DNA from: Naegleria gruberi
Taxonomy: Eukaryota
Assembly: GCA_000004985.1 (NCBI GenBank)
Contig: GG738886.1
DNA: 64,000 nucleotides
Direction: 5' to 3' (one strand)
In this document: piece by piece, positions 12,080 to 58,679 of the stretch
How positions within the stretch are numbered: the stretch's first letter is position 1
Layout of the letters: each line of letters begins with the position of its first letter
The notes under the pieces: model-generated
Told to the model about the DNA's origin: nothing
Databases searched by the model: none
Seen by the model: the letters and a program-made list of their open reading frames with translations, nothing else
Position numbers and translations under genes: made by a program

Positions 12080-15000
12080 TTATTCGTAAACCTCAGCAAA
12101 GATAGTGTTGGAACGACCAAATATTTCTGGTGAGTACATTTCTTCACATTTGGTTGGTGGAATAATGAAGGATCCGATTTGAGTGGCACGACACAAATGT
12201 TTGAAAGTGTGAGTTCCTTCCCAGAGCAAACTGGAGAATGCTTCAACACGTTCATCTCTACTATTGACATGTTCATACCATGGATAGTTCCACCAACATC
12301 TAGATTTCTTAACTTCACCTGAAGGAGCGTTACCTTTCAATTCAGGATTAATTGGTTCCAAACCAGCAGGTAAAAAGTCAACCAAAGCAACATGATAACG
12401 TCTACTGGTATTAGTGAATGTAATGATAACTCTAACCAATTCACCAGCTTTAAATTTCCAACAGTTTCTTGCCTTATCAAATTGAGCATGAGATGGATCA
12501 GTAACACCCTCATAGCTTCTCTCAATTTGGAATCCATAATCAAGAGCTGGTAATAATAAATTCTTAGGAGCATAGTCCATTCCAATTCTATAGTACAATC
12601 TACCAGGACCTTCCTTCAAGATGGCCAATGTTTGTGCACCTTCAGTGGTAGTAAGTTGTCTCATTGGAATAGTAAGAACATTTTCATCCTTATTTCTTCC
12701 CTTGAAAACTTGTTCTCCACAATAATCTTCTCCAAGCCACATCTTGGCAGTGAAATCAGGAGTGACACCTTCAAAGACATGGAAATAACTGTTGAGAGCA
12801 AGAAGGATGAAAACATTTTCTTGAGTATTGCCCCATCTTCCCTTCTTCTTATGAGCTAAAAGTCCCTTGACAACCTTTGGAATGAGATTATTTTGTGGTA
12901 CCATATGAATGAGCATTTCCAAACAAATTCCATCAGTTCTTCTATCACTGTGCAACATGATAAGCTTGCTGCTTTGCTCATCTCCATAGCTTGTAACAAA
13001 GTTGGCTGTTTGAGCAGTTTCATTGACTCTCATTAAAATATAATTCACAATTTCAGTCGATTTTGTTGTGGCTTCCTTTCCATTGGCAAAGAACATTGCT
13101 GAAGCAGTCCAAGACAAAGTTTCAAGACAAGTATCCTTCAATCCACATTCTGAATATAATTGGTCAGCTTTTTGTTTGGCTCTTGAATCTCCCAATAGGG
13201 CGGCAACATAATAAGCATATGATCTAATGGCATATTTTGATGAAGGAGAGTAATATGTATCACGAATATAATTCTCAATATCACAGAGGAAATTAGTGAG
13301 TTTGGAAACAACATTATTATTGAGAGAATAACCTGCAATCTTGGCTCTAGCAAAGGCATGACCTACGTGGCAAGAAAGGTAAGGACTGACTGAATAATCA
13401 CTTCTGTAAGTCCACCATCCGAATCCACCATTTGGAAATTGTCTTCCATTCAAAATACCCAACGATAATTGTACAGTAGAGTTAAGCATAATTGAGCTTG
13501 GAATATCCTTGACCTTGAATGCTTGAAGTACATCCTTGAGAGCAACAATTGATAAAATCTTACTTGACAATTGTTCACAACATTCAAAGGAATAGTTGTA
13601 AACATAAAGGAAGGCATCAGTCAAGGCAGACAATGCTGTACTACTGGTAGTGATTTGTAAGCCACCAAATTGAGGATAGATATTTTCTGGAGCCTTAACT
13701 GGTTGGAATGTAGTGCAATCACCATCCAATTCACCATAATGAGCAAATGCTTCTGTGGTTGCTGGTGTGAATACTCTGAGTTCCTTTTCAACAGCATCAG
13801 AAAAGTTGATCAATTCGGAAACAGAAACAGCAACTTGGAATTTAGAAATACCAACCTTGGTTGCTTGCATTGGGAATCTCAATTCAGCTCTCTTAAGAGC
13901 AGGGATTTTAACATTCAAACCTCTCTTGGATGGATCCAACAATTCGAGTCCATCATAGGCAACAGCAATATGAACATTCAAATCAATAAGGGTTTGATTT
14001 TGTAAAACACAAGCAAATTCTGCCTTATCACCAAAGTTCAAAAATCTTGGAAGGGAAGGTCTAATTGCTAGTGGCAATTGTGCAACAATTGAAGATTCTC
14101 CCAAGCCGTACAAACTATCTAGTTTGGTAGAAACAGCTGTAATTCTGTATCTCGTCAAATTGTCAGGTAATTTGAATGGCACTCTGGCCTTGCCTTGAGC
14201 ATCTGTTACACATACTGGACTAAAGACAGCAACTGGATTGAAATTCTTTCTGACAACAATGGCAGATCCAACTTCCTCACCTCCTTCACATCCACCAGCA
14301 TCGTCATTACATTCTTCGCACTCTTTTTCCTCACATCTCTTTTTGGATTTCTTACAACTTTTCCTTTCTTGCACTTCTTCTTGGCAATCACAATCATCAT
14401 AACAACAACAGGAACGACATAAACATCCTTCACACTTGCAACATTCACATTCATCATCATCACATTCTTCCTCATCAGAACTATCTTCAGGAGGAGATTG
14501 AATGTTGATATTATCAAAACTCTTGACAAATACGTGGTCTCTCAATGAGAACTCTGAGAAGCTTTGGCCAGTACCAACTATGAATGTGCTCAAAGGATTA
14601 GATATTCTATAGCCAGTCAATGAAAGAACAGCTTCATCAACAGCAACGAGACAAACCTCACTTCCAGCTTGTGGTTTAGAGTTTTCCTTGTCAGTTACCA
14701 AAACATCAACAAAGGTCTCAACACCTGGAGTAACAAATTGCTTCTCTGGAGTGACCAATACATCGAGTTGATGCACTTTGGATGAGACACCAATATAACA
14801 AGTTCCATTTGCGTACGCAGGTTGTTTTGGGAGGTCGAGAGGTAATCCAAGAGAATCACTTCTTGATTCACTACCTTGGAGCATTACACTAACTGTTACA
14901 TTTGGAATGTGTTCTTTGGTAATTTTGAGAGTGAATTCAGTTGATCCAACTTCTGGATCAATGGTGATTGGAATATTATCGATTACAGAATTGAGGCAAA

Positions 15001-18000
15001 CAGTAACAACACCATTAGCCTTACCGTCGAATGGAGATTGAATCAAAATTTTGGCTTCTTCTCCAATTTCATACATTCCTTTGTCTGCAACCAAGAGGGC
15101 TTGTTGCTTTGAAAGTCTTGAACCAACAACATCCTTCTTTGATTTACCACCAGTTACGTATAGGGAGTTATTTGAAGAGTTAGTTAAACCGGTTTCTGTA
15201 TCCTTAATTCTCAATGTGAACTTGTAGTTACCACCCTTATCGAAACTAATAGGATATTTGACTGGTTCAGATTCAGACTTGAATACCTTCTTGAAAACTT
15301 CAACAGATTCATGAACAACACTGAACCCCTTCTTCTTTTCAACGGTTGTTGTAGCAACCAGTTCCATATCAATACCAGGAATAGTATTACCTTCAAGATC
15401 AGTGGTAACCATGAATAAATTGGTTTGAACATTTGGTTTAACAAACATCTTTTCAATCTTCATTCCACAATAATATTTGCAAGGGTGAACAGTAAATGTA
15501 GTGGAATCATTAATAGTTTGACGATTAATATCTTGAACCGATGTTTCAACAGTAATGTTCATTGGAGATTTCTCTTGTCTTTCGGTTTCATCGAAGAGGA
15601 TTGCAATTTCATGTTCACCATCAGAATTACAAACACCTTCAAATGTAACTGGTTTGTAATTTTCACTTCCATAAGTATCATAACACCAATAACGATAAAA
15701 TGGATTTGAGATGTAAGTGGAGAAGTTGAAACCAGAAAAGTTTGGTGGGGTATAACTTGTCTTTGATTGTTTGATAACATAGGAACACTTTGAACCAGAG
15801 AGACCTCCACCTGAGTAGTATGCTGCTTGGGTCTTGAGAATTGTTAAGTTATTAACAATATATCTGCATGGTGGGACAGATGTTGAGACTGTAAATTCTG
15901 GAGTACGGAACTCTTGTACATTAAAGTTTGTATGCATTGTCCTACCGTTGAACTCAATGGAATGAGAGCCCAAGTTAACATTGTCTGGAATTGAAAACTT
16001 AATATCAAAGGAACCATGTTCTGAGATGGTGTATTTTCCAGTGTGATATTTTGCACCTCTAGAATCTTTAACAATGTATTCATAAGTTCCCTTTTTTGGT
16101 AGAGTTGGAATAGTTCTTGATCCGTACTTTTCAACCTTGAGTTCTCTACAAATACCCTTGATGAAAATCTCTTCTCCAGGTTTATAGAGTCCTCTATCGT
16201 TGAAAATATTATATGCTAATCTATCATCAATTCTGTAGTGATAAAGGTATAAATCTGGAATAAAGCAGGTATCATTCAAATAAGATCCAATCAGTGTATA
16301 TTCACTTCCGTTTGAGGTGTGACTAAGAACAGCAATTCCTGTTTCAGAGTCTGGTTTTGTGCTAAATGATGGAAGGAATTTCTTTTGTTTGAAACTAACA
16401 TCAGATTTGATGACAGTTCCATCAATTAAAGAATTGGCCCAACAGTAAACATTACCTGTTCGTGTATCGAAAAAGCCATCCATTGCCATCTTTGTCACCT
16501 GAATCCAGGAAATGTAAACTGGTCTGTATTTCCAATTATCTTTCCAATGTGTTTTGGATGGTTCAACTGCAACCAAAAGTTGACCTAACATGTCATTTGG
16601 ATGTTGTAAGTATTGGGTCAAGTCAATTTCTGTATCAACTGGTTCATCTGGTTGACCATTGGTATTTACCATAGTGTCAAGAACTTTTTTTCCAGAAAGA
16701 GATAATGTTGCATTGGAATAAGCATCATAGTAGAAAACATTGTTTGAATAATCACCTGGTTTAACTTGATAAACTTGGACATGGATAGCTTCAAGATTTA
16801 CACTGAATACGGAGAAGGATGGTTTAGTATTGACAGTAGGATCAATAACCATCATTCCGGTCTTGTAGGCTTGTAAAGATTGAGCTGCTGGTCCAACTTG
16901 GAAAGTAAAGTTATTTTCTCCTGCAAGTTTTTGTCCCCAAACATCTGTTATTTGACCAGAGAGTTGAACTTGGTATGTGGTACGTCCCTTAATATTACCA
17001 GATATTGTCAAGTAATTTCCAGATGGATTAATACGTAATCTTTCAATAGGTGGTTGAATACTTATATGTTCCTCATTTAATAATTCAATATCAATATTAT
17101 TACTAAATGTGAAAGAGAATGGTTCCAATGGAAGCTTTCCACCAGTATGGGAAGTAACTTTGAATTCTGGATAGTTTGTAGCTGTGAAGGAAATATCTTT
17201 TTCTGTTCTCAAAGGACCTTCAATAGATCTGGCTCCTTGCAATAATGTTATAGCGAGGGTTTCTGACAGGGCTACTCTCCTACTTGCTACATCAATTTCA
17301 ATCCAAACATGTCTATTTGGAGCAGAATTTTCCAATTTGTAATTTACAGAATTGTACAATGAGGATGATCTCTTTTCCAATGAAGATTCTTTAAGCTTTC
17401 CTTCAATATAACTCTTTACAACTGAAGTACGGCCATCATTTTGAACCAGCTTGCAAGAGTATCCAGGTATATTTACACTAGAAAAGATTTGGTTTGGATC
17501 AATATCTTGATCAAACTCCATATAAACAAATGGAAATTCGTTAATTGGAACTGCATGGTAACTATTTGGAAGATAGTTGAGCATTGTCAATCTAGGTGTT
17601 TCAAATTTAAAGGAAACATTCTTATCCAATACTCCTCCAACACTAGACTTGGTTTTTTCACAATCAATAGTGACTGTGTATTCCGTAGACATGTCAAATC
17701 TATAATTTGGTTCAAAGAATAAAGTCTTTGCACCCATCCATCTAAATCTACCACCATTCTTTGGGAATGGTTCAATTTTTACAAAAGAAAAATCTTGATC
17801 ATGAACATCTTCAACACCAGACACAGCAACCATTGGCTGAGAGAATGTGATGGAAATATGTGGCACTGATCGATCAACTGGACCTTCTGGCAAATATCTC
17901 ACCACTGCCAAACTTGATCCCAACAATGCTTCTTCTTCCTTTCTCACTTGTTCTGGTTTTTCCAATTTCTCTTCTGGTGGGAATGGAATTTCATTAACAT

Positions 18001-18379
18001 CAGCACTTCTTGGAGGTTTGAGGGTTTTTTCTCTCATGAAAAAGTCACCTTCTTCTGATGTTGATTTTTGAATTTGTGGCAATCTGGCCAATAATTTCTC
18101 TGTCAATTCATCACCAAGAGATTCAACACTTGCACCACTCTTTTGATCCTCATCCTTCTTGACAGAAGTTGCCTTTGATCCAAGTAAAATCATGGCAGTA
18201 GAATCTTCAGGTGTTGGCTCCCTAACATGAATATTCAACCCAACAGTGTAATCTTCATTATTTGCACCAAGAATGCTTGTCTCACTGCAAGGTTCCTCCT
18301 CTTCATAATCCATATCATCATCATAAAACACCATTTTCTCTCCTATTAAAATTAAATAAAAATTATAATTATCAATCAA
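12080..18379 (-). CDS. Alpha-2-macroglobulin / thioester-containing protein family member (2,099 codons from the TTG at 18379; 2,084 aa from the first ATG at 18334), single exon
   Basis: Uninterrupted 6.3-kb ORF. The thioester-region motif is YNYSFECCEQLSS (nt ~13571-13585), cf. PYGCGEQNM. The thioester-domain (TED) motif is RQFPNGGFGWW (cf. RQxDGSFxxW). The C-terminal motif is VALVDFLPAGLEPINPEL, which I recall as typical of bacterial-type A2Ms. A 17-Cys acidic insertion lies at nt ~14275-14500. No signal peptide follows the first ATG. Confidence 0.85.
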   Translation of the reverse strand: MIDNYNFYLILIGEKMVFYDDDMDYEEEEPCSETSILGANNEDYTVGLNIHVREPTPEDSTAMILLGSKATSVKKDEDQKSGASVESLGDELTEKLLARLPQIQKSTSEEGDFFMREKTLKPPRSADVNEIPFPPEEKLEKPEQVRKEEEALLGSSLAVVRYLPEGPVDRSVPHISITFSQPMVAVSGVEDVHDQDFSFVKIEPFPKNGGRFRWMGAKTLFFEPNYRFDMSTEYTVTIDCEKTKSSVGGVLDKNVSFKFETPRLTMLNYLPNSYHAVPINEFPFVYMEFDQDIDPNQIFSSVNIPGYSCKLVQNDGRTSVVKSYIEGKLKESSLEKRSSSLYNSVNYKLENSAPNRHVWIEIDVASRRVALSETLAITLLQGARSIEGPLRTEKDISFTATNYPEFKVTSHTGGKLPLEPFSFTFSNNIDIELLNEEHISIQPPIERLRINPSGNYLTISGNIKGRTTYQVQLSGQITDVWGQKLAGENNFTFQVGPAAQSLQAYKTGMMVIDPTVNTKPSFSVFSVNLEAIHVQVYQVKPGDYSNNVFYYDAYSNATLSLSGKKVLDTMVNTNGQPDEPVDTEIDLTQYLQHPNDMLGQLLVAVEPSKTHWKDNWKYRPVYISWIQVTKMAMDGFFDTRTGNVYCWANSLIDGTVIKSDVSFKQKKFLPSFSTKPDSETGIAVLSHTSNGSEYTLIGSYLNDTCFIPDLYLYHYRIDDRLAYNIFNDRGLYKPGEEIFIKGICRELKVEKYGSRTIPTLPKKGTYEYIVKDSRGAKYHTGKYTISEHGSFDIKFSIPDNVNLGSHSIEFNGRTMHTNFNVQEFRTPEFTVSTSVPPCRYIVNNLTILKTQAAYYSGGGLSGSKCSYVIKQSKTSYTPPNFSGFNFSTYISNPFYRYWCYDTYGSENYKPVTFEGVCNSDGEHEIAILFDETERQEKSPMNITVETSVQDINRQTINDSTTFTVHPCKYYCGMKIEKMFVKPNVQTNLFMVTTDLEGNTIPGIDMELVATTTVEKKKGFSVVHESVEVFKKVFKSESEPVKYPISFDKGGNYKFTLRIKDTETGLTNSSNNSLYVTGGKSKKDVVGSRLSKQQALLVADKGMYEIGEEAKILIQSPFDGKANGVVTVCLNSVIDNIPITIDPEVGSTEFTLKITKEHIPNVTVSVMLQGSESRSDSLGLPLDLPKQPAYANGTCYIGVSSKVHQLDVLVTPEKQFVTPGVETFVDVLVTDKENSKPQAGSEVCLVAVDEAVLSLTGYRISNPLSTFIVGTGQSFSEFSLRDHVFVKSFDNINIQSPPEDSSDEEECDDDECECCKCEGCLCRSCCCYDDCDCQEEVQERKSCKKSKKRCEEKECEECNDDAGGCEGGEEVGSAIVVRKNFNPVAVFSPVCVTDAQGKARVPFKLPDNLTRYRITAVSTKLDSLYGLGESSIVAQLPLAIRPSLPRFLNFGDKAEFACVLQNQTLIDLNVHIAVAYDGLELLDPSKRGLNVKIPALKRAELRFPMQATKVGISKFQVAVSVSELINFSDAVEKELRVFTPATTEAFAHYGELDGDCTTFQPVKAPENIYPQFGGLQITTSSTALSALTDAFLYVYNYSFECCEQLSSKILSIVALKDVLQAFKVKDIPSSIMLNSTVQLSLGILNGRQFPNGGFGWWTYRSDYSVSPYLSCHVGHAFARAKIAGYSLNNNVVSKLTNFLCDIENYIRDTYYSPSSKYAIRSYAYYVAALLGDSRAKQKADQLYSECGLKDTCLETLSWTASAMFFANGKEATTKSTEIVNYILMRVNETAQTANFVTSYGDEQSSKLIMLHSDRRTDGICLEMLIHMVPQNNLIPKVVKGLLAHKKKGRWGNTQENVFILLALNSYFHVFEGVTPDFTAKMWLGEDYCGEQVFKGRNKDENVLTIPMRQLTTTEGAQTLAILKEGPGRLYYRIGMDYAPKNLLLPALDYGFQIERSYEGVTDPSHAQFDKARNCWKFKAGELVRVIITFTNTSRRYHVALVDFLPAGLEPINPELKGNAPSGEVKKSRCWWNYPWYEHVNSRDERVEAFSSLLWEGTHTFKHLCRATQIGSFIIPPTKCEEMYSPEIFGRSNTIFAEVYE

Positions 18380-18573
18380 AAGAATGTTGCTGTATTTTTT
18401 TTGATCTGTTGGGAGTTGGAGATCGGCACCTATTTTATGCCTGTTCGGATGAACTTGTGTGGATAAGGAGGCGAACAGGGAATCATTAAAAGGAAGAACA
18501 TAATGAGCATTTCAAGATGTAATAACTCTCATTGTGTGAATGGCACACTGAGAGTAATTGATGAACGAAAAAT

Positions 18574-19857: not shown

Positions 19858-20751
19858 TTATTGTAGGGAGCATCGCTTTTTCTTTCTTTTTGGTACAGAT
19901 ATTGCATGAGTCATTAATGCTGATTTTATACACAACTCTACAAACTGTGTCATAATTTCATCACCATCCTCCAATGATGAAATTTCATAATAGGTCAGGC
20001 ATTTGTGTTCCTTACAAAACTTGATAGCATTCTGTACAGTAACATCATCCTCTTTGGTTTTTAAATCCTTTTGAGTTCCTAATATTAACATTGGAGTGTG
20101 TGGCATGTAGTGATTGGCGTAGGGAAGCCACTTTGATTTGATTCTTTCTAAACCGTATACACGTCTGAATGGGAATGTTGCCACAAAGAGATCACTTCCA
20201 AACATTAAGAGAGGAATCATTCGTTCATAATCCATATCAGAAACATCTACAAAATCAATACAGAACTTTCTTCCCTCAATGGAAATGTGATATTGGAATT
20301 GATTATCTAAATTGTATTTACCCAACCTCTTCAATAGATCGGTTACACCAGAATGGTGATCACCTAAAACAGCCACTTTGAAATGAGGTAGTGGACATTT
20401 CAATTCTTCCACTGATTTTTGTAAAATTTTGTCATAGCTTTCGTATTCATAATTTTCAGTAAATTTCAATAATTCCATTCCACACACTTGCAAATAGTGA
20501 AGATAATAATTTTCTTTCGGATCTTCTTTCATTAAAATAGAATAGTGGCATGCATATCCATATTCCAATACTGGTTTTACTTTCGAATAATTTTCCAATT
20601 TCCTATCGTAATGTTTCTTCCACAATAAATCACTCGATCCAATCACATAAAACTCCTTACAAACCATCATGTAATTCACCAAACTCTTCACATTAATAAA
20701 CGAACAAATCAGCATCCACTCATCATTCGAAACACGTTGATGATGATTCAT
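19858..20751 (-). CDS. F-box + degenerate Rho/Ras-like small GTPase domain + polybasic CAAX (KRKKKRCSLQ), about 297 aa
   Basis: The first ATG is at 20751 (MNHHQRVSNDEWMLICSFINVKSLVNYMMVCKEFYVI..LLWKKHY, F-box-like). A GTPase-like core follows: VAVLGDHHSGVTDL (P-loop without Lys), DVSDMDYERM (in place of DTAGQE), LGTQKDL (NKxD retained) and a C-terminal CAAX box. Confidence 0.7.
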   Translation of the reverse strand: MNHHQRVSNDEWMLICSFINVKSLVNYMMVCKEFYVIGSSDLLWKKHYDRKLENYSKVKPVLEYGYACHYSILMKEDPKENYYLHYLQVCGMELLKFTENYEYESYDKILQKSVEELKCPLPHFKVAVLGDHHSGVTDLLKRLGKYNLDNQFQYHISIEGRKFCIDFVDVSDMDYERMIPLLMFGSDLFVATFPFRRVYGLERIKSKWLPYANHYMPHTPMLILGTQKDLKTKEDDVTVQNAIKFCKEHKCLTYYEISSLEDGDEIMTQFVELCIKSALMTHAISVPKRKKKRCSLQ

Positions 20752-20857
20752 TTTTTTGTTATCAAATTTCAACTGTCCTTTTTCTTTCTTCCAAAACTAA
20801 TTGATCTTGTAATTATTATTGATTTGAATTGTAAAATTAAGATTTATTAGCAAAAAA

Positions 20858-21061
20858 ATGAAAAGAAAGGTGGAATGCATCGAATCAGGCAGAGAGAATG
20901 ATACTTCGGAAGTTTATCAACCTAAGCAACAGTATAGAAAATTAACTTCCACTTCATCTCCTTCTGCCTCGACATTATCTACTTCTTCATCGGGGATTGT
21001 TGGGAATTCTTGTCATAATAATTATTTATTTGATGATGAATTTAATATAATGGATCGGTGA
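20858..21061 (+). CDS. Small Ser/Thr-rich ORF (67 aa), status uncertain
   Basis: It has an ATG start but no domain. It could be a uORF or small gene upstream of the DUF4116 gene. No splice joining it to the downstream ORF could be constructed. Confidence 0.2.
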   Translation: MKRKVECIESGRENDTSEVYQPKQQYRKLTSTSSPSASTLSTSSSGIVGNSCHNNYLFDDEFNIMDR

Positions 21062-21093
21062 CTGTAATTTTGAGTGATTTCTTGTTGAGAGGA

Positions 21094-22786
21094 ATGTCCT
21101 ATGATGATACTGATCATTTTCCTCAACAACATCGATGGCTAACAGGTAAATTCCAATCTCAAACCAAAGGGAAGCTTAAGTGGATGAAAAGAAGGGATGA
21201 ATTGTTTGAGAAACGTTCGTCATTCATTCCGATAGAATTTTGCCATGATAAGGAATTGGTTTTGCACATGTTTAAAACAATAGAAATAGATGCACATGTA
21301 TTTGATTGCATTCAAGCTGATGTGATAGACAATGATTTGCTTGTTAGAATTATGAATAGATTGAATGATAGTTCAGTTAGATCTGAAGCAATAGATAATT
21401 TTATAGAACTTTTCAAAAGGTATAATATTACCTTAGACGGAAATTCAAAGGAAGGAAAGGAATTTGTTTCAGCCTATGAGATGGAAAATGGCAAGTATGA
21501 AACAGCCTTAAAACTATTCATAGCAAGTGGGAACGTCTCTAATATATTAAGACAAGATGTTGATTTCATTTACGACGTATTTAAACATTTTAATGGAGAT
21601 GAAAGAATGTTACATATTGTACTTTATTTTTGTATGGCAGATAAGGATGCTTTGCTTAGGTTCGCAGAGATTAATCCACATGTGGTGGCTTGTGCATCAC
21701 AAGAATTTCAACAAGATGAGAACTTTCTTAGAGAACTCATTGATACGAACACTGACTATCTGAAACATTTAATATTTGCTACCGAACACGACAAGAATAG
21801 TGCAAAAGCAAAGAAATGCAGGGAAATATTATCAAATGATTCGTTGAGAAGAAAGATGGAGAATGACGAGAAGTTTATACTACATTATTGTGCTGTCGAT
21901 CCTGAACTTTTCAGGTTGATCTCTCCAAAATTACTAGTTGACAAGAAATTCTTATTCAACATATTGGAAAAGATAGAGAAATGCCCTTTTGCATTGTCTA
22001 CAGTTTTGAATCATATTCCAGAAGTCATGAAAAGCGATTTTGATATTATGTTAAAGGCAGTTAAGATAGATCCTATCTCTTTTATGCATGCTTCTGATCA
22101 GCTAATGCATGACCAAGAATTTGTATTGAAATGTCTTGGACGGTATTCTGATCTAATATTTCCAATGATTCCTAATGAATTCCTTCAAGATAGAGAATTC
22201 CTTATGGAGATGTTGGAAATAAATGGAAGCTTACTTGAGTATGCTCCTTCTGAATTCCAAGGTAAGTTAATAATATTACACATTCTAACAATGTTAAAAA
22301 GATGATGAAGAGATGGTTCTTCAAGCCTTAAAATCTGACGGTGGTTCAATTGATTTTGTCTCTACACGGCTTAAAAACGATAGAGATTTTCTATTAAAAG
22401 CCAAGAAGCAAACAAATCTATATGTGAACCTGCTATCGAGGGCTATTGTAAATGATGAATTCTTACTGGAATCATTAGAATCACCATTTGTGGATGATGT
22501 TTATGAAGAAATAGAAGCACGAGGCTTAAGGGACAATTATGACTTTATGAAAGAAGCCATAAAAAGAGTGTATAGTTACACTGAATTACCAGATAATTTT
22601 AAAGCGTTGAAGGAAATGTCATTATTGGCAATATCAGTTGATGGTAGAGAATTAAAGTATGTTCACCATAAGGATGACCTTGAGGTTCAAAAGGCTGCCG
22701 TGAACCAAAATGGATATTTCATTAAGCAATCACAAGAATTGTTGGACTATAGGTTAGAATGTGCATATTTTGGATGCAAGATTTGA
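21094..22786 (+). CDS. Protein made of DUF4116-like repeats (D-R-E-hydrophobic-VL-x-AV-x-x-N/D-G-x-x-L-x-Y-A), 2 exons: 21094..22261, 22302..22786 (about 550 aa)
   Basis: The intron is 22262-22301 (GTAAGT...AAAAAG, 40 nt), phase 1. The splice yields ...APSEFQDDEEMVLQALKSDGGSIDFVSTRLKNDRDFLLKA, continuing the repeat register. Repeats include DFDIMLKAVKIDPISFMHAS and DQEFVLKCL. The start may lie upstream, since the frame is open from 21058. Confidence 0.7.
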
Positions 22787-24376: not shown

Positions 24377-26071
24377 ATGATTACTGACGGCAGTGATGAA
24401 GTAGTCGATCAATTTTGGTTCGGTATTGATTTTGGAAATTCCTTCATCAAAGTTTCAGCCAATGCTCCCGAATGTCCATTCGATTCCATTTCCGAAGAGA
24501 AAATTATTAAATTGTCAAATCATTTCAATTCCAGTATCGTTTGTATGATGGAATCGAACCTGACACGATTTGAATTAATTGGCTATGATGATAAAGCAGA
24601 TAATGAATTTATTGATTTTACAATTATTAATATTAAAAGATTAATTGATAATCTATCGGATGAAAATCAAATGAATGAAATTGAGATATTGGGAGTGGTA
24701 CAGACTGATAATGATGATGATAAGAGGTTTATTACTCAAATAGTAATGGAGAATGTGAAATTGAGATCGAGGGATGATTTGGAGAACTTGAACAAATTAG
24801 CTCTGATTAGGATTATGGATAGAAAAACAAATTCCTCAATTGAAATTCCACTTTTTACTGTTTTGTTAAAATTGTTTGAAAAATTGAGAAGGAAAATAGT
24901 TCAAAACAATGATTCAAAACTACTTTTATGTAATATTGCTACAATTCCAGTATTTTACAATGATTTACAAAATAATTTTGTTAAGGTTGCATTTGAAATG
25001 GCTGGATTTAAGGTGGAAAGAACCATTCGTGAAACGGTTGCTGCAGCAAGAGCATACGATTTTGAAAGCAAAACAGAAAGAGACATGTTGGTTCTCGATT
25101 GTGGAGCTACCAAGACTATGCTCTCACTATATCATGTAGATGAAGGAGTTTATGAACTATTGGAATTTATTTCAGATAGCAGTGTTTCAGGAAATTCGAT
25201 AGATGAAGCACTGGTTGACTATTGTGAATTGGAGTTTAAAAAGAAAACAAAAAAGATACTTGACAATCAGAACGCACGAAAAAGACTTCGTGAGGCATGT
25301 AAGATGGCTAAAGAGAAATTAAATAGTGATAGCACACCTCTCAATGTTTCAATACATGTTGATTCATTGATGGATGGAGTTGATTTCTCTATAATACTAA
25401 GCAAACCAAAGTTTGAGCAAATCATTACACCAACATTGTCAAAGATAGCATCCTTATTGAATTCCTTTTTAGAATCTAGAACCATCCATTCTATTAATGA
25501 TTTGATATTATGTGGGGCAAGCAGCCAAATCTCAAAATTTACATCAGTAATTAGAGAATTTTTCAAATCCAATCAGCAGTTCGTGGTTCACGATAGCATT
25601 CCTCCAAAAACTATCAATGCAAGAGGTGCTGCTTCATTCTGTGAACTATTCAGAGTTGAACAAAGTTATTGGGTTAATGCAGTATTATCACTTAGTATTG
25701 GGATTGAACATGAGAGGAAAATGTTTATTTTAGCAGATAGAAATACCTATCTCCCATTCCAAAAATCATTCATTATCGAAAAGAAGGTCAACCCTGCCAC
25801 CAATCAATACCACTTTAAACTTTATATGGGTGAAAGAGCTATACCGAGTAATAATTTATTTATGGGAGAGGTTTGCATTCCTAATAGTCAATGTGATAAT
25901 ACCAATATCAAACAATTCAAATTAGATGTAATCATATCAGAAAATGAAATTCTCTTCCTCTCCATTCATGATAACTTACAAGAGTATCATTTCCAAGCAG
26001 ATTGGACCCATCTCACTCGAGAATTAGTTGAGCAGAGTATTCAATTAGGTCACCTGGATAAATCATCATAA
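24377..26071 (+). CDS. Divergent Hsp70/actin-fold ATPase-like protein (564 aa)
   Basis: Motifs align to Hsp70 landmarks: FGIDFGNSFIKVS (GIDLGTTYS), VLDCGATKTMLSLYHVDEGVYELLEF (VFDLGGGTFDVS..FEV), NARKRLREACKMAKEKLNS (RRLRTACERAKRTLSS) and LILCGASSQISKFTSVIREFF ([20 protein letters not shown]). There is no EEVD tail and no substrate-binding-domain signature. Confidence 0.65.
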   Translation: MITDGSDEVVDQFWFGIDFGNSFIKVSANAPECPFDSISEEKIIKLSNHFNSSIVCMMESNLTRFELIGYDDKADNEFIDFTIINIKRLIDNLSDENQMNEIEILGVVQTDNDDDKRFITQIVMENVKLRSRDDLENLNKLALIRIMDRKTNSSIEIPLFTVLLKLFEKLRRKIVQNNDSKLLLCNIATIPVFYNDLQNNFVKVAFEMAGFKVERTIRETVAAARAYDFESKTERDMLVLDCGATKTMLSLYHVDEGVYELLEFISDSSVSGNSIDEALVDYCELEFKKKTKKILDNQNARKRLREACKMAKEKLNSDSTPLNVSIHVDSLMDGVDFSIILSKPKFEQIITPTLSKIASLLNSFLESRTIHSINDLILCGASSQISKFTSVIREFFKSNQQFVVHDSIPPKTINARGAASFCELFRVEQSYWVNAVLSLSIGIEHERKMFILADRNTYLPFQKSFIIEKKVNPATNQYHFKLYMGERAIPSNNLFMGEVCIPNSQCDNTNIKQFKLDVIISENEILFLSIHDNLQEYHFQADWTHLTRELVEQSIQLGHLDKSS

Positions 26072-54005: not shown

Positions 54006-57000
54006 TTAAACTCTCAGAGCTTGTGGGAAGGTAACACCTGGCAAGTTGAATACCAACTTGTTGAGAGAGTTGGCAAATTCTGTACCATCCTCAGAGAAGA
54101 ACCACACTGTGGAAGTGTCGCTTTCTGATACTTCTTGTTCTGGATTCATGGATTGCATACAGAAAGATCTATCGAATGACTTGAGTAACTTGATGTCACT
54201 GACTGATTCTTCATTTTCAAAGTACTTCATACCATCTAACCAGTGACAGAAATCATTCAATTCTTTTCTTGAGTTAAAAGTAATATAATCATTTTCCCAA
54301 TAGGAGCTTTCAGGATATTGTTCCTTGAGTGACTTGATAGCATCAGAGAAGTAGAACTTTCTTTCACTTCTTCCCTTTCTCAGATCTTCGAGATATCTTT
54401 CAAATGGTGAAAGAGGAGAAGTTTGTGGTTTATCACTCCACAAATTCAATCTTCCCAATACATCTGTAACAAAGTGTTGACAGTTGCACTTGAATGGATC
54501 GTAGGTCTTGGTGGCATTCCATTCAACACAAGCACTAGCAACGGTATCGAGAGCATTCTTAATATTATCAACCTTGCTAAAGCTTCCAACATCAATTACA
54601 GCCAAAGCATATTCATTTCTATAAACTCTGTAGTCTCCTCTCACTCTCACAATGGAGTGATCGTAGAAATCAAATCTCCAAGGTCCAATCAATAAACCAG
54701 TATGGAATGCTCCAAACAAATTGTCCTTATATGTTGGACGGAAGAGATCGAATAATGAATTTCTGAAATCATTGGTGCAATCTGAAACAATAATCTTGAC
54801 AGTCATGAGTGGTGGCTTTCTTTCATCTTTGTGCTTCTTGGAGAGATGTTCCATTGTCTTGCCATAGTGTTTGGCAACGAATCTATCTTTACAAATGGCA
54901 TTTTGAGCTTCAATGGTCTTATTCTCATCCAAATATAAATCCTTCCATGCTTGAGACTTTTCTTGTGATTTTCCTTGACCATGCTTGCTGGAAATCTTTT
55001 CGTCTAACTTCTTCAACTTATCCAAGTACAATTTCATACCTTGTCTTTCTTCTAGGGAAAGCAATCTTTCATCATAGGAAGTGACATTCATGTCGAGTGG
55101 TTGAGCAGATTCCTTCTCTTCAGTCAAGTCTTCATCAAAGTAAATTTGGTTTTGAGATGGAGAAGTGAAAATATTTCTAAATATACCAGAGAACCAGCTT
55201 GACTTTCTAACTGGAGAAGTTCCTGTAGAATTTGGTGGAGAAGAACCTGTAGAATCCTTCTTTGTTTGTTTGATAGGAATACTTGGACTACTTGTAGTAT
55301 AGATACCATGTCTTGGAATAGTCTTTGACTTTTCAAGATAGCTCAATTCTAAAATATTGTTTGGATTGTGAGCCAATCTACACCATTCAAGAACCGAGAC
55401 ACCCAAGTTATCCTTGTTTTCAAAGGACATACCAAATCTATTCATGAGAATTCTGCAGTGTTTCTTCATTCCTCTGAAAGCATAGTGAGTCAGGAGAGTA
55501 AAACCATAAATATCTCTACTTTCATGTCCCAGTGAGTTGACAGCATTAATAAATTCTTCTTCGTCCATTTCGGATTCATCAGTAACCACTCTGTAGTGGA
55601 GTTCTGTGAATTGTACATAAAGATTGGCGTATTGCTTTGGATGAATTCCTTCCATATCATCAAAAGTAACATTATGAATTTGGTTGGAAATCTTGTCAGC
55701 AATTAACCTTCTCACCTCATCATTGAATTGTGAACCATAAGATTGATAAAATTCGAGTAACTTGGAGGTTGCTTGATTGGAAAGTTCTTCCTTATCGATT
55801 GGTTCATAGGTGAATTTTCCTTGCTGTTTGGTTTGTGGGTTAACCAAAATAGCTTTCATATTGTAAAGAATTCTGAAGAAAATAGTCTGTGGTGTTGTTG
55901 TTTCCCTAGTTGGTCTTGGCATTCTAACAACAAGATCAACATGATCAACCTGTTGAACGACACGAACAATTTTGAAGAATCCTCTTTCAATAAAATCATA
56001 AGACATTTCAGCTTCAACAAGGAACATTTCTGACTCAATGGAAGGATCAGCTACAAACTTGCGTTTCATGCTGTTTCCTTCGAATGAGAGATCTAACTTG
56101 CAAACCACATCAACTCCACCCTTACCAACAGTAGGATTGTTAGCAATGAATTGAAGTTGATTGGCATCAGCAGTTTCCCAATCACATGTACGCTTTTGTT
56201 TAGCGCTACCTCTTGTTACTTCAGGAACAGGTTCTGGGTTGACTGGAGATCTTTGGAGTGGTCTCATTGGGCTCATATTATTAATATCCTTCTCAATGAA
56301 CAAGCTACTAATCCAAATATCATCAGTTGACATGGCAGCATTGTGATTTTCCTTTCTCAAGTTGAACAATGAATAGAATGAGTAGGCACATTCATTGTGA
56401 ACAAATCTATACTTGATAAGTAAGAGTTTCTTCTTTCTAATACCCTTGACTGGCTCAGCATATCTTGGGAATCTCATCAATAAAATTTGATCATCCTGCT
56501 TAGCTTGAACTGTACCACCTTGTTCAGTTGAAAGACGTTCAAAGCCCATGATTTGCTTTTGAGGAGGGAAGGTTCCAACAGTACTGAGAGTGTAGGAATC
56601 TTCTGGGAATCCTAAATTTTTCAATTCATCAATAAAATCAATACCCTTCGAGGTGTCTGTAATTAAAAATCCCCATACATCATCTTGTGGTTGGGATCCA
56701 ACTCTCTCTACCTTAATCAAATTGTCCTTTCCACCCTCTGTGAGAGAAATTCTAATATACTTATTTCTAAAGTCCAAGAGCAAGTCTTGAGATTCAGTAT
56801 TTGGAGGAGAGGTTGTGATTGTTGCAGGCTTACCACTCTTGGATTTCTTCTTGTCTGCTCCAGCCTTACCTGAAGAGCTATCATTGGCAATAATAACAGT
56901 AAAGAGTTCCTTCTCAGAATCTCCCTCACGTTTGTACCATGATACAACCTTTGGCCAGTAAACTTGACCTTCAGTCTTGACTCTACATGGATAGCTTACA

Positions 57001-58679
57001 GTTCCACCAATCATTGATGCTTCCATCATGTCCATTTCAGGTGAGAGTCCACCCAAATTATTGCTTGTAGTTGCATAGTGTTGCATGTTGTGATCGGCAG
57101 AATTACCAGGAGGGGAAGTGCTACTTGAAGATGAGGATGAATGTTCATAACTGGTTTGTGAAGTGGTTGGCATTTGTCTGACAAATCCTAAACCATTTAC
57201 ATTAGGTTGCACAATGTAATGACCCATCGAATCATCATGTAAGCTACTTTGAGTACTGCCCATACTGCCAGCAAAAAGACTTTTTCCACTCGATACACTC
57301 GTTGGAAGGCTACCATCTTGGTTTCTCAACAAGCTACCAATAGAGCTAGAAGATGTTCCCATTCTATTACCTGAGTGATCCATAACAACATCCATTACAC
57401 TACCAGTCGATCCGAATATATCTTGGAAAGAGTTTGTGCTAGACGATAAAAAGCCACTACCCAAACTGTTGCTGTTAACAGCAGAATTAAGGCTGGTACC
57501 TGCTATAAATTCATTCTCATGAGAATAAGAGTTTGGCTCAGTTGTAAACATGTCAGTATGGTTGACTGAATCAAACAAGTTATTGTTAAATGATGAAGAG
57601 TAAGCAAGTTGTGGCATGTTCATAACTCCATTCACATTGTTAATATTGTTAGCATTATTGGTCATTACATAATTTGGTTGATTTAGTTGTTGTTGTTGTT
57701 GAATTTGAGCAAAAAGGTTATTGACAATATTATTTTGTTGTTGCTGTTGAGAATTAAGTTGTTTTGAATTCATATTTGGAGAATTCAAACCATTCATTTG
57801 ATTGTTTGTACTATTTGAACTGTTTTGACTGACAGGAGTTACTACTTGTTGTTGTTGAATAGGAGAAGTGGTAGAATTGGAATGTTGTGAAGGAGAGGTA
57901 GAGGCAGTAGATATTAAATGTGGATGTTGCATCAAAATGTTACCAACATTTTGGGCACCCAGAACATTTGTCAACATTATAAGTTGGCTGAGTTTTTCCT
58001 GTTGATCGGCATCACTCTGTGAACCATTACTTCCCTGATCACAATTCATGTTTGGAGATTGTTGTGGTGAAGGTGTTGATTGTGGTTGTTGCTGTTGTTT
58101 GTTCACAGTATTATTCTTCTCTAACATGAATCTCTTCCACAAAAATCTTGCAAATGTTGTAGGAATACCATACTGAATAAGTTCTTCCTCTGATAGTTGA
58201 GCAAGAACATTACTGGATTTGATGTAATTCTGAGCGAATATATTGGCAATAGGATAAAAGTCATTATCACTCAAATACATGGTATTCTTGGTTTCTGATA
58301 ACATGGAAGCAAATCTAGGTGAAAAGGACAAGCTGGTTTGTTGTCCATAGTTTCTTTGATTCAATTGGGCAGTATTAATGGGCATCACTCTAGACATGCC
58401 CATATTAGACGTATTGTTGCTGTTAGTTTGTTGTTGTTGAGTAGAATTGTTTGTAGGAGAATGATACACAACTCCTCCCATAGGTGAATTATGCTGATTC
58501 GTATTGTTTGCCAGCAAGTATTGCTTTTGGAGAGCTTGTTGGTATTGGACAAGTTGTTCTGGGGAGAGGACTAGACCGTTATTGTTATTATAGATTTGAT
58601 TATTGTTGTTCATGAGTCTCATTCCATTGTTGTTGTTATTCATCATCATGGATGGTGAAAGGTTGTTGTTGTTGTCCAT
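54006..58679 (-). CDS. Very long Q/N-rich protein (1,557 aa) with a C-terminal PPPDE/DeSI-like (DUF862) cysteine-peptidase domain
   Basis: Uninterrupted ORF. The C-terminal pattern has a His in HTGLLIGPWRFDFYDHSIVR and a Cys in KCNCQHFVTDVLGRL, resembling the PPPDE NCNHF catalytic dyad. An upstream Q/N-rich ORF (58636-58875) in another frame suggests the real N-terminus may start at the ATG at 58875. Confidence 0.75.
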   Translation of the reverse strand: MDNNNNLSPSMMMNNNNNGMRLMNNNNQIYNNNNGLVLSPEQLVQYQQALQKQYLLANNTNQHNSPMGGVVYHSPTNNSTQQQQTNSNNTSNMGMSRVMPINTAQLNQRNYGQQTSLSFSPRFASMLSETKNTMYLSDNDFYPIANIFAQNYIKSSNVLAQLSEEELIQYGIPTTFARFLWKRFMLEKNNTVNKQQQQPQSTPSPQQSPNMNCDQGSNGSQSDADQQEKLSQLIMLTNVLGAQNVGNILMQHPHLISTASTSPSQHSNSTTSPIQQQQVVTPVSQNSSNSTNNQMNGLNSPNMNSKQLNSQQQQQNNIVNNLFAQIQQQQQLNQPNYVMTNNANNINNVNGVMNMPQLAYSSSFNNNLFDSVNHTDMFTTEPNSYSHENEFIAGTSLNSAVNSNSLGSGFLSSSTNSFQDIFGSTGSVMDVVMDHSGNRMGTSSSSIGSLLRNQDGSLPTSVSSGKSLFAGSMGSTQSSLHDDSMGHYIVQPNVNGLGFVRQMPTTSQTSYEHSSSSSSSTSPPGNSADHNMQHYATTSNNLGGLSPEMDMMEASMIGGTVSYPCRVKTEGQVYWPKVVSWYKREGDSEKELFTVIIANDSSSGKAGADKKKSKSGKPATITTSPPNTESQDLLLDFRNKYIRISLTEGGKDNLIKVERVGSQPQDDVWGFLITDTSKGIDFIDELKNLGFPEDSYTLSTVGTFPPQKQIMGFERLSTEQGGTVQAKQDDQILLMRFPRYAEPVKGIRKKKLLLIKYRFVHNECAYSFYSLFNLRKENHNAAMSTDDIWISSLFIEKDINNMSPMRPLQRSPVNPEPVPEVTRGSAKQKRTCDWETADANQLQFIANNPTVGKGGVDVVCKLDLSFEGNSMKRKFVADPSIESEMFLVEAEMSYDFIERGFFKIVRVVQQVDHVDLVVRMPRPTRETTTPQTIFFRILYNMKAILVNPQTKQQGKFTYEPIDKEELSNQATSKLLEFYQSYGSQFNDEVRRLIADKISNQIHNVTFDDMEGIHPKQYANLYVQFTELHYRVVTDESEMDEEEFINAVNSLGHESRDIYGFTLLTHYAFRGMKKHCRILMNRFGMSFENKDNLGVSVLEWCRLAHNPNNILELSYLEKSKTIPRHGIYTTSSPSIPIKQTKKDSTGSSPPNSTGTSPVRKSSWFSGIFRNIFTSPSQNQIYFDEDLTEEKESAQPLDMNVTSYDERLLSLEERQGMKLYLDKLKKLDEKISSKHGQGKSQEKSQAWKDLYLDENKTIEAQNAICKDRFVAKHYGKTMEHLSKKHKDERKPPLMTVKIIVSDCTNDFRNSLFDLFRPTYKDNLFGAFHTGLLIGPWRFDFYDHSIVRVRGDYRVYRNEYALAVIDVGSFSKVDNIKNALDTVASACVEWNATKTYDPFKCNCQHFVTDVLGRLNLWSDKPQTSPLSPFERYLEDLRKGRSERKFYFSDAIKSLKEQYPESSYWENDYITFNSRKELNDFCHWLDGMKYFENEESVSDIKLLKSFDRSFCMQSMNPEQEVSESDTSTVWFFSEDGTEFANSLNKLVFNLPGVTFPQALRV

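Follow-up and report, generated by a model that had tools for sequence, protein, structure and literature searches.

A bacterial-type α2-macroglobulin from Naegleria gruberi with a cysteine-string bait region and no signal peptide: a candidate cytosolic thioester trap

Introduction

Can thioester-based protease trapping operate inside a eukaryotic cell? The question is raised by NAEGRDRAFT_80736, a gene of the heterolobosean amoeba Naegleria gruberi that encodes an α2-macroglobulin (A2M)/thioester-containing protein (TEP) and lies on the minus strand of contig GG738886.1 (NCBI GenBank assembly GCA_000004985.1), within the 64,000-nucleotide stretch analysed here (the window, numbered from its first letter). 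The thioester proteins characterised so far (A2M, C3/C4, insect TEPs, CD109 and ECAM) all act outside the cytoplasm, in blood, haemolymph or the bacterial periplasm. The gene is already public, with the annotation 'predicted protein' only, yet it is uncharacterised, and the amoebal clade to which it belongs is undescribed. Our literature search returned no paper naming its identifiers, its orthologues, protist or amoebal thioester proteins, or a ubiquitin or deubiquitinase bait, and a 2026 review of A2M evolution is silent on protists, signal peptides and horizontal transfer.

We propose, with a probability of about 0.6, that the product of NAEGRDRAFT_80736 is a cytosolic, protease-triggered thioester trap that was acquired horizontally and whose bait region was subsequently remodelled. 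This reading is built on the domain architecture, the thioester site, the bait region, the N-terminus and the phylogeny, which are described below together with the alternatives on which each of them bears.

Gene structure and overall architecture

NAEGRDRAFT_80736 occupies an uninterrupted frame (12080..18379, minus strand; 2099 codons counted from a TTG) in which the first ATG is at 18334, with no in-frame ATG between the preceding stop and this position. The resulting complete, intronless coding sequence (12080..18334, minus strand) specifies 2084 residues plus a stop, begins MVFYDDDMDYEEEEP and is 100% identical to the public N. gruberi model (EFC41406.1, XP_002674150.1, D2VPB7), in agreement with the intronless A2M-like open reading frame (ORF) reported in an initial annotation that was made from the letters alone. 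The product is colinear with its homologues across 96–100% of its length.

The protein is a full-length member of the A2M/TEP superfamily of bacterial type I, and on superfamily membership, which the initial annotation had claimed from a few landmarks, Pfam domains, sequence matches in the PDB, AlphaFold models and Foldseek searches agree. It displays the characteristic architecture of an array of macroglobulin (MG) β-sandwich domains, a bait-region domain, a helical thioester domain (TED) and a C-terminal MG domain. The Pfam search recovered A2M-family domains along the chain, all encoded on the minus strand. The N-terminal β-sandwich array includes two stretches matching the bacterial Ig-like domain Big_5 (the better at residues 405–479; 16898..17122; E = 1.9e-11) and is followed by MG2 (residues 710–806; 15917..16207; E = 4.4e-10). 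A2M_BRD, the MG domain that bears the bait region, spans residues 1081–1239 (14618..15094; E = 3.1e-17), and the 'A2M' MG domain after the bait (PF00207) spans residues 1369–1456 (13967..14230; E = 2e-14). The α-helical TED (residues 1569–1854; 12773..13630) was delimited by the helices of the AlphaFold model (model residues 529–814), with 5a42 and 4u48 as the top Foldseek matches at ~1e-49, and the chain closes with the C-terminal MG domain bMG10 (residues 1934–2070; 12125..12535; E = 9.5e-30), which matches the full-length profile (1–131/131). An NCBIfam scan of the product gave zero matches.

The sole phmmer matches in the PDB were ECAM (YfhM) from Escherichia coli and SaA2M from Salmonella. 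The AlphaFold models have mean pLDDT (predicted local distance difference test) values of 80.9 for residues 1–1040 and 80.8 for residues 1041–2084, and the N-terminal half is nearly all β from about residue 144. With the C-terminal model (residues 1041–2084) the top Foldseek matches were ECAM (5a42; 1.8e-49) and SaA2M (4u48; 6.6e-49), followed by human A2ML1, CD109, frog oocyte A2M, mosquito TEP1 and complement C5/C3 (1e-42 to 1e-29).

Relatives and origin

Relatives were gathered by a word-indexed search and by running HMMER exhaustively over 1.84 billion representatives. The exhaustive search returned 17,283 relatives at E ≤ 0.001 and 3,502 at E ≤ 1e-30. The 143 new top-scoring representatives that were inspected are mostly of bacterial type, with a typical length of ~2000 residues, a hydrophobic N-terminus, a median of 5 cysteines and a bait region devoid of cysteine. 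A profile search with 11 eukaryote sequences yielded no further eukaryotic members owing to word-index and representative effects; the exhaustive search did recover more.

A neighbour-joining (NJ) tree (p-distance-derived distances, 259 full-length sequences, 1820 columns, 100 bootstraps) places NAEGRDRAFT_80736 in a 24-tip eukaryote clade (bootstrap 97/100) that is nested among signal-peptide-bearing bacterial proteins. The clade takes in every sequence of the tree that both lacks a signal peptide and is cysteine-rich overall. Its closest tree neighbours are of bacterial type, nearly all with a signal peptide, and its closest named bacterial relatives are Acidobacteria, mainly Pyrinomonadaceae. 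Heterolobosean members come from N. gruberi (two, NAEGRDRAFT_80736 and NAEGRDRAFT_45966), N. fowleri (two), N. lovaniensis (three), Willaertia magna (three) and Percolomonas cosmopolitus, and amoebozoan members from Protostelium nocturnum, Cavostelium apophysatum, Sappinia pedata and Dracoamoeba jomungandri; the remainder are a sequence from the fern Adiantum capillus-veneris and others from uncultured eukaryotes or transcriptomes. Since the amoebozoan and Percolomonas sequences are transcript-derived, the family is expressed and these N-termini are independent of gene calling in genomes.

Because bacterial diversity is far greater and the eukaryote clade is nested within it, these relationships indicate a probable direction of transfer from bacteria to eukaryotes. 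They support the horizontal acquisition that had been suggested at the outset, and bMG10, the homologue searches and the tree likewise bear out a bacterial-type rather than a metazoan-type affinity. There may have been one transfer or several (through eukaryote-to-eukaryote spread, or in the case of the fern).

Several members of the clade are of interest in their own right. NAEGRDRAFT_45966 (P0286), a distant N. gruberi paralogue of 2266 residues on a 712-kb scaffold and the orthologue of N. fowleri FDP41_008308, has no signal peptide, the thioester-site sequence YECNEQ and a 15-Cys bait. The third N. lovaniensis paralogue (P0288) has FECCEQ and a basic 12-Cys bait. The fern gene (L005:8001-14216, on the 181-Mb chromosome CM043943.1) is intronless, encodes 2071 residues with YECNEQ and is isolated, the 8 kb on each of its flanks being free of called genes; it may represent an independent or secondary horizontal transfer, and its placement may reflect long-branch attraction.

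The thioester site

The thioester motif YSFECCEQ (residues 1581–1588; 13571-13594, minus strand) lies within the TED. In the phmmer alignment 'ysfeCCEQlss' matches ECAM 'ypygCLEQtas' residue for residue, with C1585..Q1588 on ECAM C1187-L-E-Q1190. On the basis of this alignment C1585 is assigned as the thioester cysteine, in line with the position first proposed for it, and the extra cysteine occupies the variable position x of CxEQ. The thioester is predicted to join C1585 and Q1588, with Tyr1581 and Phe1583 as predicted shielding aromatics. The initial annotation had called ECCEQ non-canonical. The additional cysteine is real, and that label overstates its effect, as bacterial A2Ms use CxEQ with a variable x and the motif is undisrupted.

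In the bacterial proteins the thioester pocket is formed by two TED tyrosines (Y-x-Y-x-CLEQ) together with the Met and Tyr of an EXMY motif (Fyfe et al., PMC4498604), and in SaA2M and ECAM the RDDR motif of the C-terminal MG domain touches the TED and later binds the cleaved bait (PMC4498604). The corresponding set is present here as Y1581-x-F1583-x-C1585, E-E-M2066-Y2067 (EEMY; 12134-12145, minus strand) and R2026-D-E-R2029 (RDER; 12248-12259, minus strand), the latter two within bMG10. EEMY and RDER are kept in 24/24 clade members, conservation extends to the pattern Y-x-[YF]-x-C, and residues Y1581, C1585, E1587, Q1588, M2066 and Y2067 are invariant in an alignment of 11 eukaryote sequences.

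Across the 259 sequences x is Cys in six of the 24 clade members, compared with none of 235 bacterial-type relatives, in which S, A, T, N, V, L, H and others occupy the position. CCEQ occurs in five distinct lineages, four of which also have a Cys-string bait; this association is suggestive and uncorrected for kinship. A second tetrapeptide, CGEQ, which is canonical in metazoans, is located ~290 residues past the real site (residues 1872–1875; 12710-12721, minus strand) and is kept in Naegleria and Willaertia. It was considered as a second thioester and dismissed as a coincidence, since it lies outside the TED and Ala or Val replaces the Cys in bacterial relatives.

The bait region

Between the conserved anchors of a 103-sequence alignment lies the bait region (residues 1249–1361; 14252..14590, minus strand), which is hypervariable among homologues. 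It contains an acidic Cys string with 17 cysteines in 59 residues (residues 1291–1349; 14288..14464, minus strand; ~29% Cys), with three CC, five CxC and five CxxC pairs, a net charge of −9, a KKSKKR basic patch and one Tyr. Such clustering has a binomial P of ~1e-15 given the Cys frequency of the remaining protein, and among the 34 ORFs in the window none of the others exceeds 9 Cys per 75 residues. The string sits between A2M_BRD and PF00207 and maps in the phmmer alignment to ECAM residues ~920–973, spanning the ECAM bait as defined experimentally (Arg923–Asn963; PMC4498604). In the AlphaFold model residues 1271–1355 have a pLDDT of 28–36 and no secondary structure, so that the segment is predicted to be disordered, as expected for a bait. 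The flanking Pfam domains, the ECAM mapping, the 103-sequence alignment and the model thus concur with the initial annotation in locating the Cys/acidic segment at the bait position, where structure prediction gives an unstructured loop.

That annotation had also described the segment as metallothionein-like. The description is apt for the composition (~30% Cys, CC/CxC/CxxC, few aromatics) and fails for family membership: none of eight Cys-rich baits matched any Pfam family, metallothionein families included, at E ≤ 10, a search in which the HMMER bias filters may suppress such matches. Membership of a metallothionein family was accordingly set aside.

Baits with at least 12 cysteines are found in 9/24 clade members, whereas no bait exceeds 2 among the 235 sequences from elsewhere in the tree. 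Cys richness persists in the three Naegleria orthologues, in the pair formed by NAEGRDRAFT_45966 and N. fowleri P0093, in the third N. lovaniensis paralogue and in two unrelated lineages from uncultured or transcriptome sources; the Cys-string bait is a recurrent invention within the clade. The Cys positions cannot be aligned between orthologues. The acidic matrix is strong in the N. gruberi, N. lovaniensis and N. fowleri orthologues, and certain paralogue baits are basic instead ('KECAKRCCCKKSCAVPCCSCCGACK', 'ARCCRKCCCNCCNCCCKCC'), so the kept feature is the Cys string and not its acidic matrix. Further baits in the clade are poly-Glu, Met/Gln-rich or Ala/Ser-rich. A 15-nt tandem repeat (TCACATTCATCATCA; 2.2 copies, plus strand, 14445-14477) lies within the Cys/acidic coding segment and suggests that the bait grows or changes by replication slippage.

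What the string does can be stated only speculatively. We rank first, as a possibility that falls short of an even chance, a thiolate cluster that gates access to the bait: zinc or copper would be bound by the thiolates, and how accessible the bait is would depend on the state of the metal or on redox conditions. In metallothionein itself, proteases readily degrade the apo-form, and the holo-form resists them. Ranked second, and doubtful, is an S-acylated string that would serve as a membrane anchor or tether, or as a lipidated decoy. The segment may instead have no specific function, being a fast-evolving, slippage-prone stretch of low complexity that is tolerated because bait sequences are unconstrained. 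The hypervariability of the baits in all relatives, the tandem repeat, the unaligned Cys positions and the empty Pfam search would fit this explanation, which we nevertheless regard as unlikely, since Cys richness persists in the Naegleria orthologues, in paralogues and in two unrelated lineages, is seen in none of the 235 bacterial-type relatives, and is kept as a composition while the sequence drifts, a pattern that is typical of metallothioneins and cysteine strings.

A different solution is found in P0008, a 38% identical relative (L001:10001-16096) encoded on a 146-kb metagenomic contig with eukaryotic genes. Its bait is a complete ubiquitin (Pfam 1–72/72; 7.6e-25; ~L001:13700-13915), placed exactly at the bait position and terminating in LRLRGG|APIEE. 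This ubiquitin reads like an in-built bait for deubiquitinases or ubiquitin-like proteases. Other genes on the contig encode an eukaryotic-type RdRP, RGS/GPS and Tudor-SN.

The N-terminus and cellular location

The N-terminus of the protein (residues 1–35; 18230..18334, minus strand) is an acidic, non-hydrophobic leader at the place of the bacterial signal peptide, as judged from hydropathy, the AlphaFold model and alignment. The highest 12-residue hydropathy in the first 50 residues is −0.12, compared with 2.0–3.6 in most bacterial relatives; residues 1–28 are disordered in the model, and the leader has a pLDDT of 35–41 and no helix. Residues 57–200 are colinear with residues 53–189 of the acidobacterial protein P0009, which opens with a classical signal peptide, and from this colinearity it appears that the bacterial signal peptide and linker were replaced by an acidic leader of similar length. 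The orthologues from N. lovaniensis (60% identity) and N. fowleri (59%) are single-exon genes with the same acidic start (MMDEIDYEEEEP), and a DYEEEEP motif is common to NAEGRDRAFT_80736 and N. lovaniensis P0001.

The absence of a signal peptide, first remarked on for the single gene, proves to be a conserved trait: all 24 clade members lack one (hydropathy <1.6, compared with a median of 2.3 for bacterial representatives), including the transcript-derived sequences from Protostelium, Cavostelium, Sappinia, Dracoamoeba and Percolomonas (Trinity/MMETSP). Mis-assembly of the 5′ end, the alternative offered in the initial annotation, is ruled out by the acidic start shared with the orthologues and by identity to the public model. 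The same annotation had pointed to a hydrophobic upstream ORF (uORF) of 26 codons, MLIMFFLLMIPCSPPYPHKFIRTGIK (MLIMFFLL...GIK), and had suggested that a 1-nt indel in an A8 run could turn it into a signal peptide. Both exist, the A8 run at 18395-18402 and the uORF at 18430-18510 (minus strand), where it lies in the ~240 nt by which NAEGRDRAFT_70799 precedes the A2M gene. The conversion is impossible, because the stop of the uORF (18430-18432) lies upstream of the run; the uORF is moreover out of frame, and no hydrophobic counterpart was found upstream of the N. lovaniensis and N. fowleri genes, so it was rejected as a source of a signal peptide.

The members of the clade contain 9–49 cysteines (at least 16 in 22/24), compared with the bacterial median of 5, and in the 11-sequence eukaryote alignment the thioester Cys is the sole invariant one, so that there is no conserved disulfide framework. 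The high, non-conserved Cys content is consistent with a reducing compartment. An intracellular, and more precisely cytosolic, location is suggested by the lack of a signal peptide, the abundance of non-conserved cysteines and the ubiquitin bait of P0008.

The obvious competitor is an ordinary inhibitor that acts outside the cell or in a lumen (phagosome, contractile vacuole or cyst wall), having arrived there by unconventional secretion or by means of an unannotated 5′ exon, with its bait disulfide-bonded. Gene models begin at the first ATG by default, secreted proteins commonly carry Cys-dense segments, and the characterised A2M/TEP proteins, bacterial and animal, all act outside the cytoplasm (PMC4498604, PMC8712716). 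Several observations make such an inhibitor improbable. A hydrophobic N-terminus is present in none of the 24 clade members, transcripts from five genera included; the upstream gene ends only ~240 nt before the ATG, and the sole hydrophobic uORF in this interval is out of frame, terminated and unconserved; the orthologues are single-exon; the thioester Cys is the only conserved Cys; and the P0008 bait, ubiquitin, is a cytosolic substrate.

Proposed mechanism

With a cytosolic location as the preferred reading, the following sequence of events can be put forward. The protein would be synthesized on free ribosomes and retained in the cytosol. The Cys1585–Gln1588 thioester, for which both residues are present, would form in the TED, and Tyr1581/Phe1583 together with Met2066/Tyr2067 would keep it buried where the TED meets the C-terminal MG domain, while the disordered bait loop (residues ~1271–1355) would remain exposed, as its position and the structure prediction suggest. 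By analogy with ECAM and SaA2M (PMC4498604), cleavage by a protease would untether the bait and set it in competition with the TED for binding to the C-terminal MG domain; the TED would swing out, and the freed thioester would acylate the protease, resulting in its covalent capture. The role of such a trap might be the cell-autonomous control of cytoplasmic proteases, whether pathogen or viral effectors or endogenous enzymes, which is speculative.

A number of points weigh against this proposal. We know of no precedent for a reactive thioester in a glutathione-rich cytosol, and in an extracellular protein a Cys-dense segment could form disulfide bonds. That a signal peptide is absent was judged only from hydropathy, which is a heuristic, and from alignment; in genome models the first ATG is by convention taken as the start, 'complete' TransDecoder ORFs may have incomplete 5′ ends, and Percolomonas P0147 has a basic, hydroxyl-rich N-terminus that may be an organellar presequence. 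Metal clusters are beyond what AlphaFold can represent, and the bait that it shows as disordered may therefore be ordered in a holo-form. In NJ trees the fern and other long branches might be drawn to the clade. Finally, the thioester Cys and Gln are lost in two clade members, P0167 (a Sappinia pedata transcript) and P0221 (a Logan contig), and because of these losses covalent capture is not obligatory within the clade. The sites read FESTEG and HHSSEY in these two proteins, which retain EEMY and RDER; as thioester-less forms they parallel type II bacterial A2Ms.

The same losses could be taken to mean that the A2M fold is used here for something other than trapping proteases, such as the direct sensing of metals, oxidants or electrophiles by the Cys string, the tagging of non-protease targets by the thioester, or scaffolding of the type II kind. 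The composition of the bait is unlike that of any known protease bait, and the type II protein MagD functions without a thioester in a multiprotein complex (PMC5764988). We consider such a use improbable, in view of the joint retention of CxEQ, the shielding aromatics, EXMY and RDxR, of a long disordered loop in which basic and acidic sites are prone to cleavage, and of the LRLRGG terminus of the P0008 ubiquitin, which is recognised by deubiquitinating proteases and points to protease triggering in the clade.

Extending the proposed trap to the clade as a whole, we raise as a tentative idea, less probable than not by a good way, that Heterolobosea and Amoebozoa hold bacteria-derived cytosolic thioester traps whose baits are decoys of the host structures attacked by pathogen proteases. 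Ubiquitin would trap deubiquitinases or ubiquitin-like proteases, the Naegleria Cys strings could be metal-loaded or lipidated, and the whole would amount to an intracellular, integrated-decoy immunity of unicellular eukaryotes that resembles that of complement and TEPs.

Genomic setting

The scaffold that carries NAEGRDRAFT_80736 is N. gruberi nuclear DNA of 358,576 bp, with eukaryotic genes on both flanks. Of ten intronless ORFs of the window that were compared, seven correspond exactly to N. gruberi proteins encoded on it. The neighbours encode F-box+Ras, DUF4116, MYND, HSP70-like, ADP-ribosylglycohydrolase, VPS9, BTB/Kelch and P450 proteins. Among them are a fusion of F-box-like and Ras-family domains (19858-20772, minus strand), a DUF4116 repeat protein (21058-22305, plus strand) and an HSP70-like protein (24377-26071, plus strand) whose match covers only positions 117–487 of the HSP70 profile. 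Further along the window, NAEGRDRAFT_58837 (54006-58679, minus strand) is intronless and encodes 1557 residues with zero Pfam matches. The GC content of NAEGRDRAFT_80736 (0.370) and its GC at third codon positions (GC3; 0.271) are in line with those of the adjacent genes and host-like. A tblastn search with 18 flanking ORFs detected no synteny with the N. lovaniensis and N. fowleri A2M loci, and for this reason orthology to those genes was assigned from the tree (100% bootstrap).

That the nearest non-eukaryotic relatives are bacterial and that the N. lovaniensis and N. fowleri loci share no synteny with this one might suggest an artefact, be it bacterial contamination, mis-assembly or a pseudogene. 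We give this almost no credence: the 6.25-kb frame is unbroken and flanked by eukaryotic genes on a 358-kb scaffold, its GC3 is host-like, orthologues with 59–60% identity are present in two further Naegleria genomes and relatives occur in transcriptomes. Because GC and GC3 match those of the neighbours, which are ordinary eukaryotic genes, contamination, mis-assembly and decay to a pseudogene were excluded.

Implications

If the proposal is correct, an expressed clade that lacks signal peptides and keeps the parts of the trap intact would bring thioester chemistry inside the eukaryotic cell, with trigger loops rebuilt from cytosolic-type modules (a Cys string in NAEGRDRAFT_80736 and ubiquitin in P0008). 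It would also provide a candidate system of cell-autonomous protease defence or regulation in free-living and pathogenic amoebae, including N. fowleri, in which two such genes were found. Amoebae host Legionella, chlamydiae and giant viruses, which makes an amoebal anti-protease system plausible. Which way A2Ms passed between bacteria and eukaryotes is debated, and in this case the phylogeny favours transfer from bacteria to eukaryotes. The ubiquitin bait of P0008, finally, suggests how nature may have designed a trap that captures deubiquitinases covalently.

Comparison with known systems

The Cys-rich bait shares with metallothioneins and cysteine strings a Cys content of ~29%, CC/CxC/CxxC pairs, a scarcity of aromatics and neighbouring Lys/Arg. 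There is a resemblance between paralogue baits, for instance 'RCCCKKSCAVPCCSCCGACK', and both vertebrate metallothionein ('CKKSCCSCCPVGCAKC') and CSP-type strings. It differs from metallothioneins in being a loop inside a 2084-residue protein, in its strongly acidic matrix and in matching no Pfam profile.

The sole published precedent that we found for a bacterial-type A2M-like protein in an amoeba is Dictyostelium CPRas2, reported in 2008 to combine a COG2373/A2M-like region with an inserted circularly permuted Ras GTPase (PMC2430557), in which the A2M-like part is thus joined to a cytosolic-type domain. CPRas2 differs in its length (>3000 residues) and in its cpRAS insertion; no thioester or bait analysis was reported for it, and it was not recovered among the relatives here. 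COG2373 is also the label that JGI gives to many of the relatives, and it is shared, together with the MG architecture, with the type II A2Ms (Pseudomonas aeruginosa MagD and E. coli YfaS). These are without a thioester (PMC5764988), whereas NAEGRDRAFT_80736 has the thioester motif.

Metazoan A2M, A2ML1, CD109, TEP1 and C3/C4/C5 have in common with the Naegleria protein the superfamily fold, a TED that holds the thioester (a predicted one in NAEGRDRAFT_80736) and, in the corresponding part of the chain, a bait or anaphylatoxin segment. Metazoan TEPs are secreted and have GCGEQ and a receptor-binding A2M_recep domain, whereas NAEGRDRAFT_80736 has ECCEQ, no signal peptide and bMG10. In eukaryotic A2Ms the four residues that shield the thioester all come from the C-terminal MG domain (PMC4498604); in NAEGRDRAFT_80736, as in bacteria, two of the shielding residues come from the TED (PMC4498604).

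ECAM and SaA2M (5a42, 4ziq, 4rtd and 4u48) are the closest relatives of known structure. They share the MG array, the bait-region domain and its position, the helical TED with CxEQ and two aromatics before the thioester Cys, and bMG10 with EXMY and RDDR-type motifs. The identity is ~17–18% in the structural alignment, and NAEGRDRAFT_80736 is ~430 residues longer, with extra N-terminal Big_5/Ig-like domains. It further differs in its 17-Cys bait, in having Cys as the x of CxEQ, which is Leu in ECAM, in the lack of a signal peptide or lipobox, and in being encoded in a eukaryotic nuclear genome with no pbpC-type operon context; bacterial type I A2Ms are typically anchored to the membrane in the periplasm, and their genes often adjoin pbpC.

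A further comparison is with the uncharacterised A2Ms of ~2000 residues from Acidobacteria (Pyrinomonadaceae) and other soil bacteria (P0009–P0092). These carry bMG3 and DUF6049 Pfam signatures, neither of which was detected in NAEGRDRAFT_80736, and they differ from it by their hydrophobic N-termini, their median of 5 cysteines and their Cys-free baits. In other respects the Pfam domain set and CxEQ are common to both, with 35–37% identity and colinearity over ~96% of the length that includes the region right after the signal peptide.

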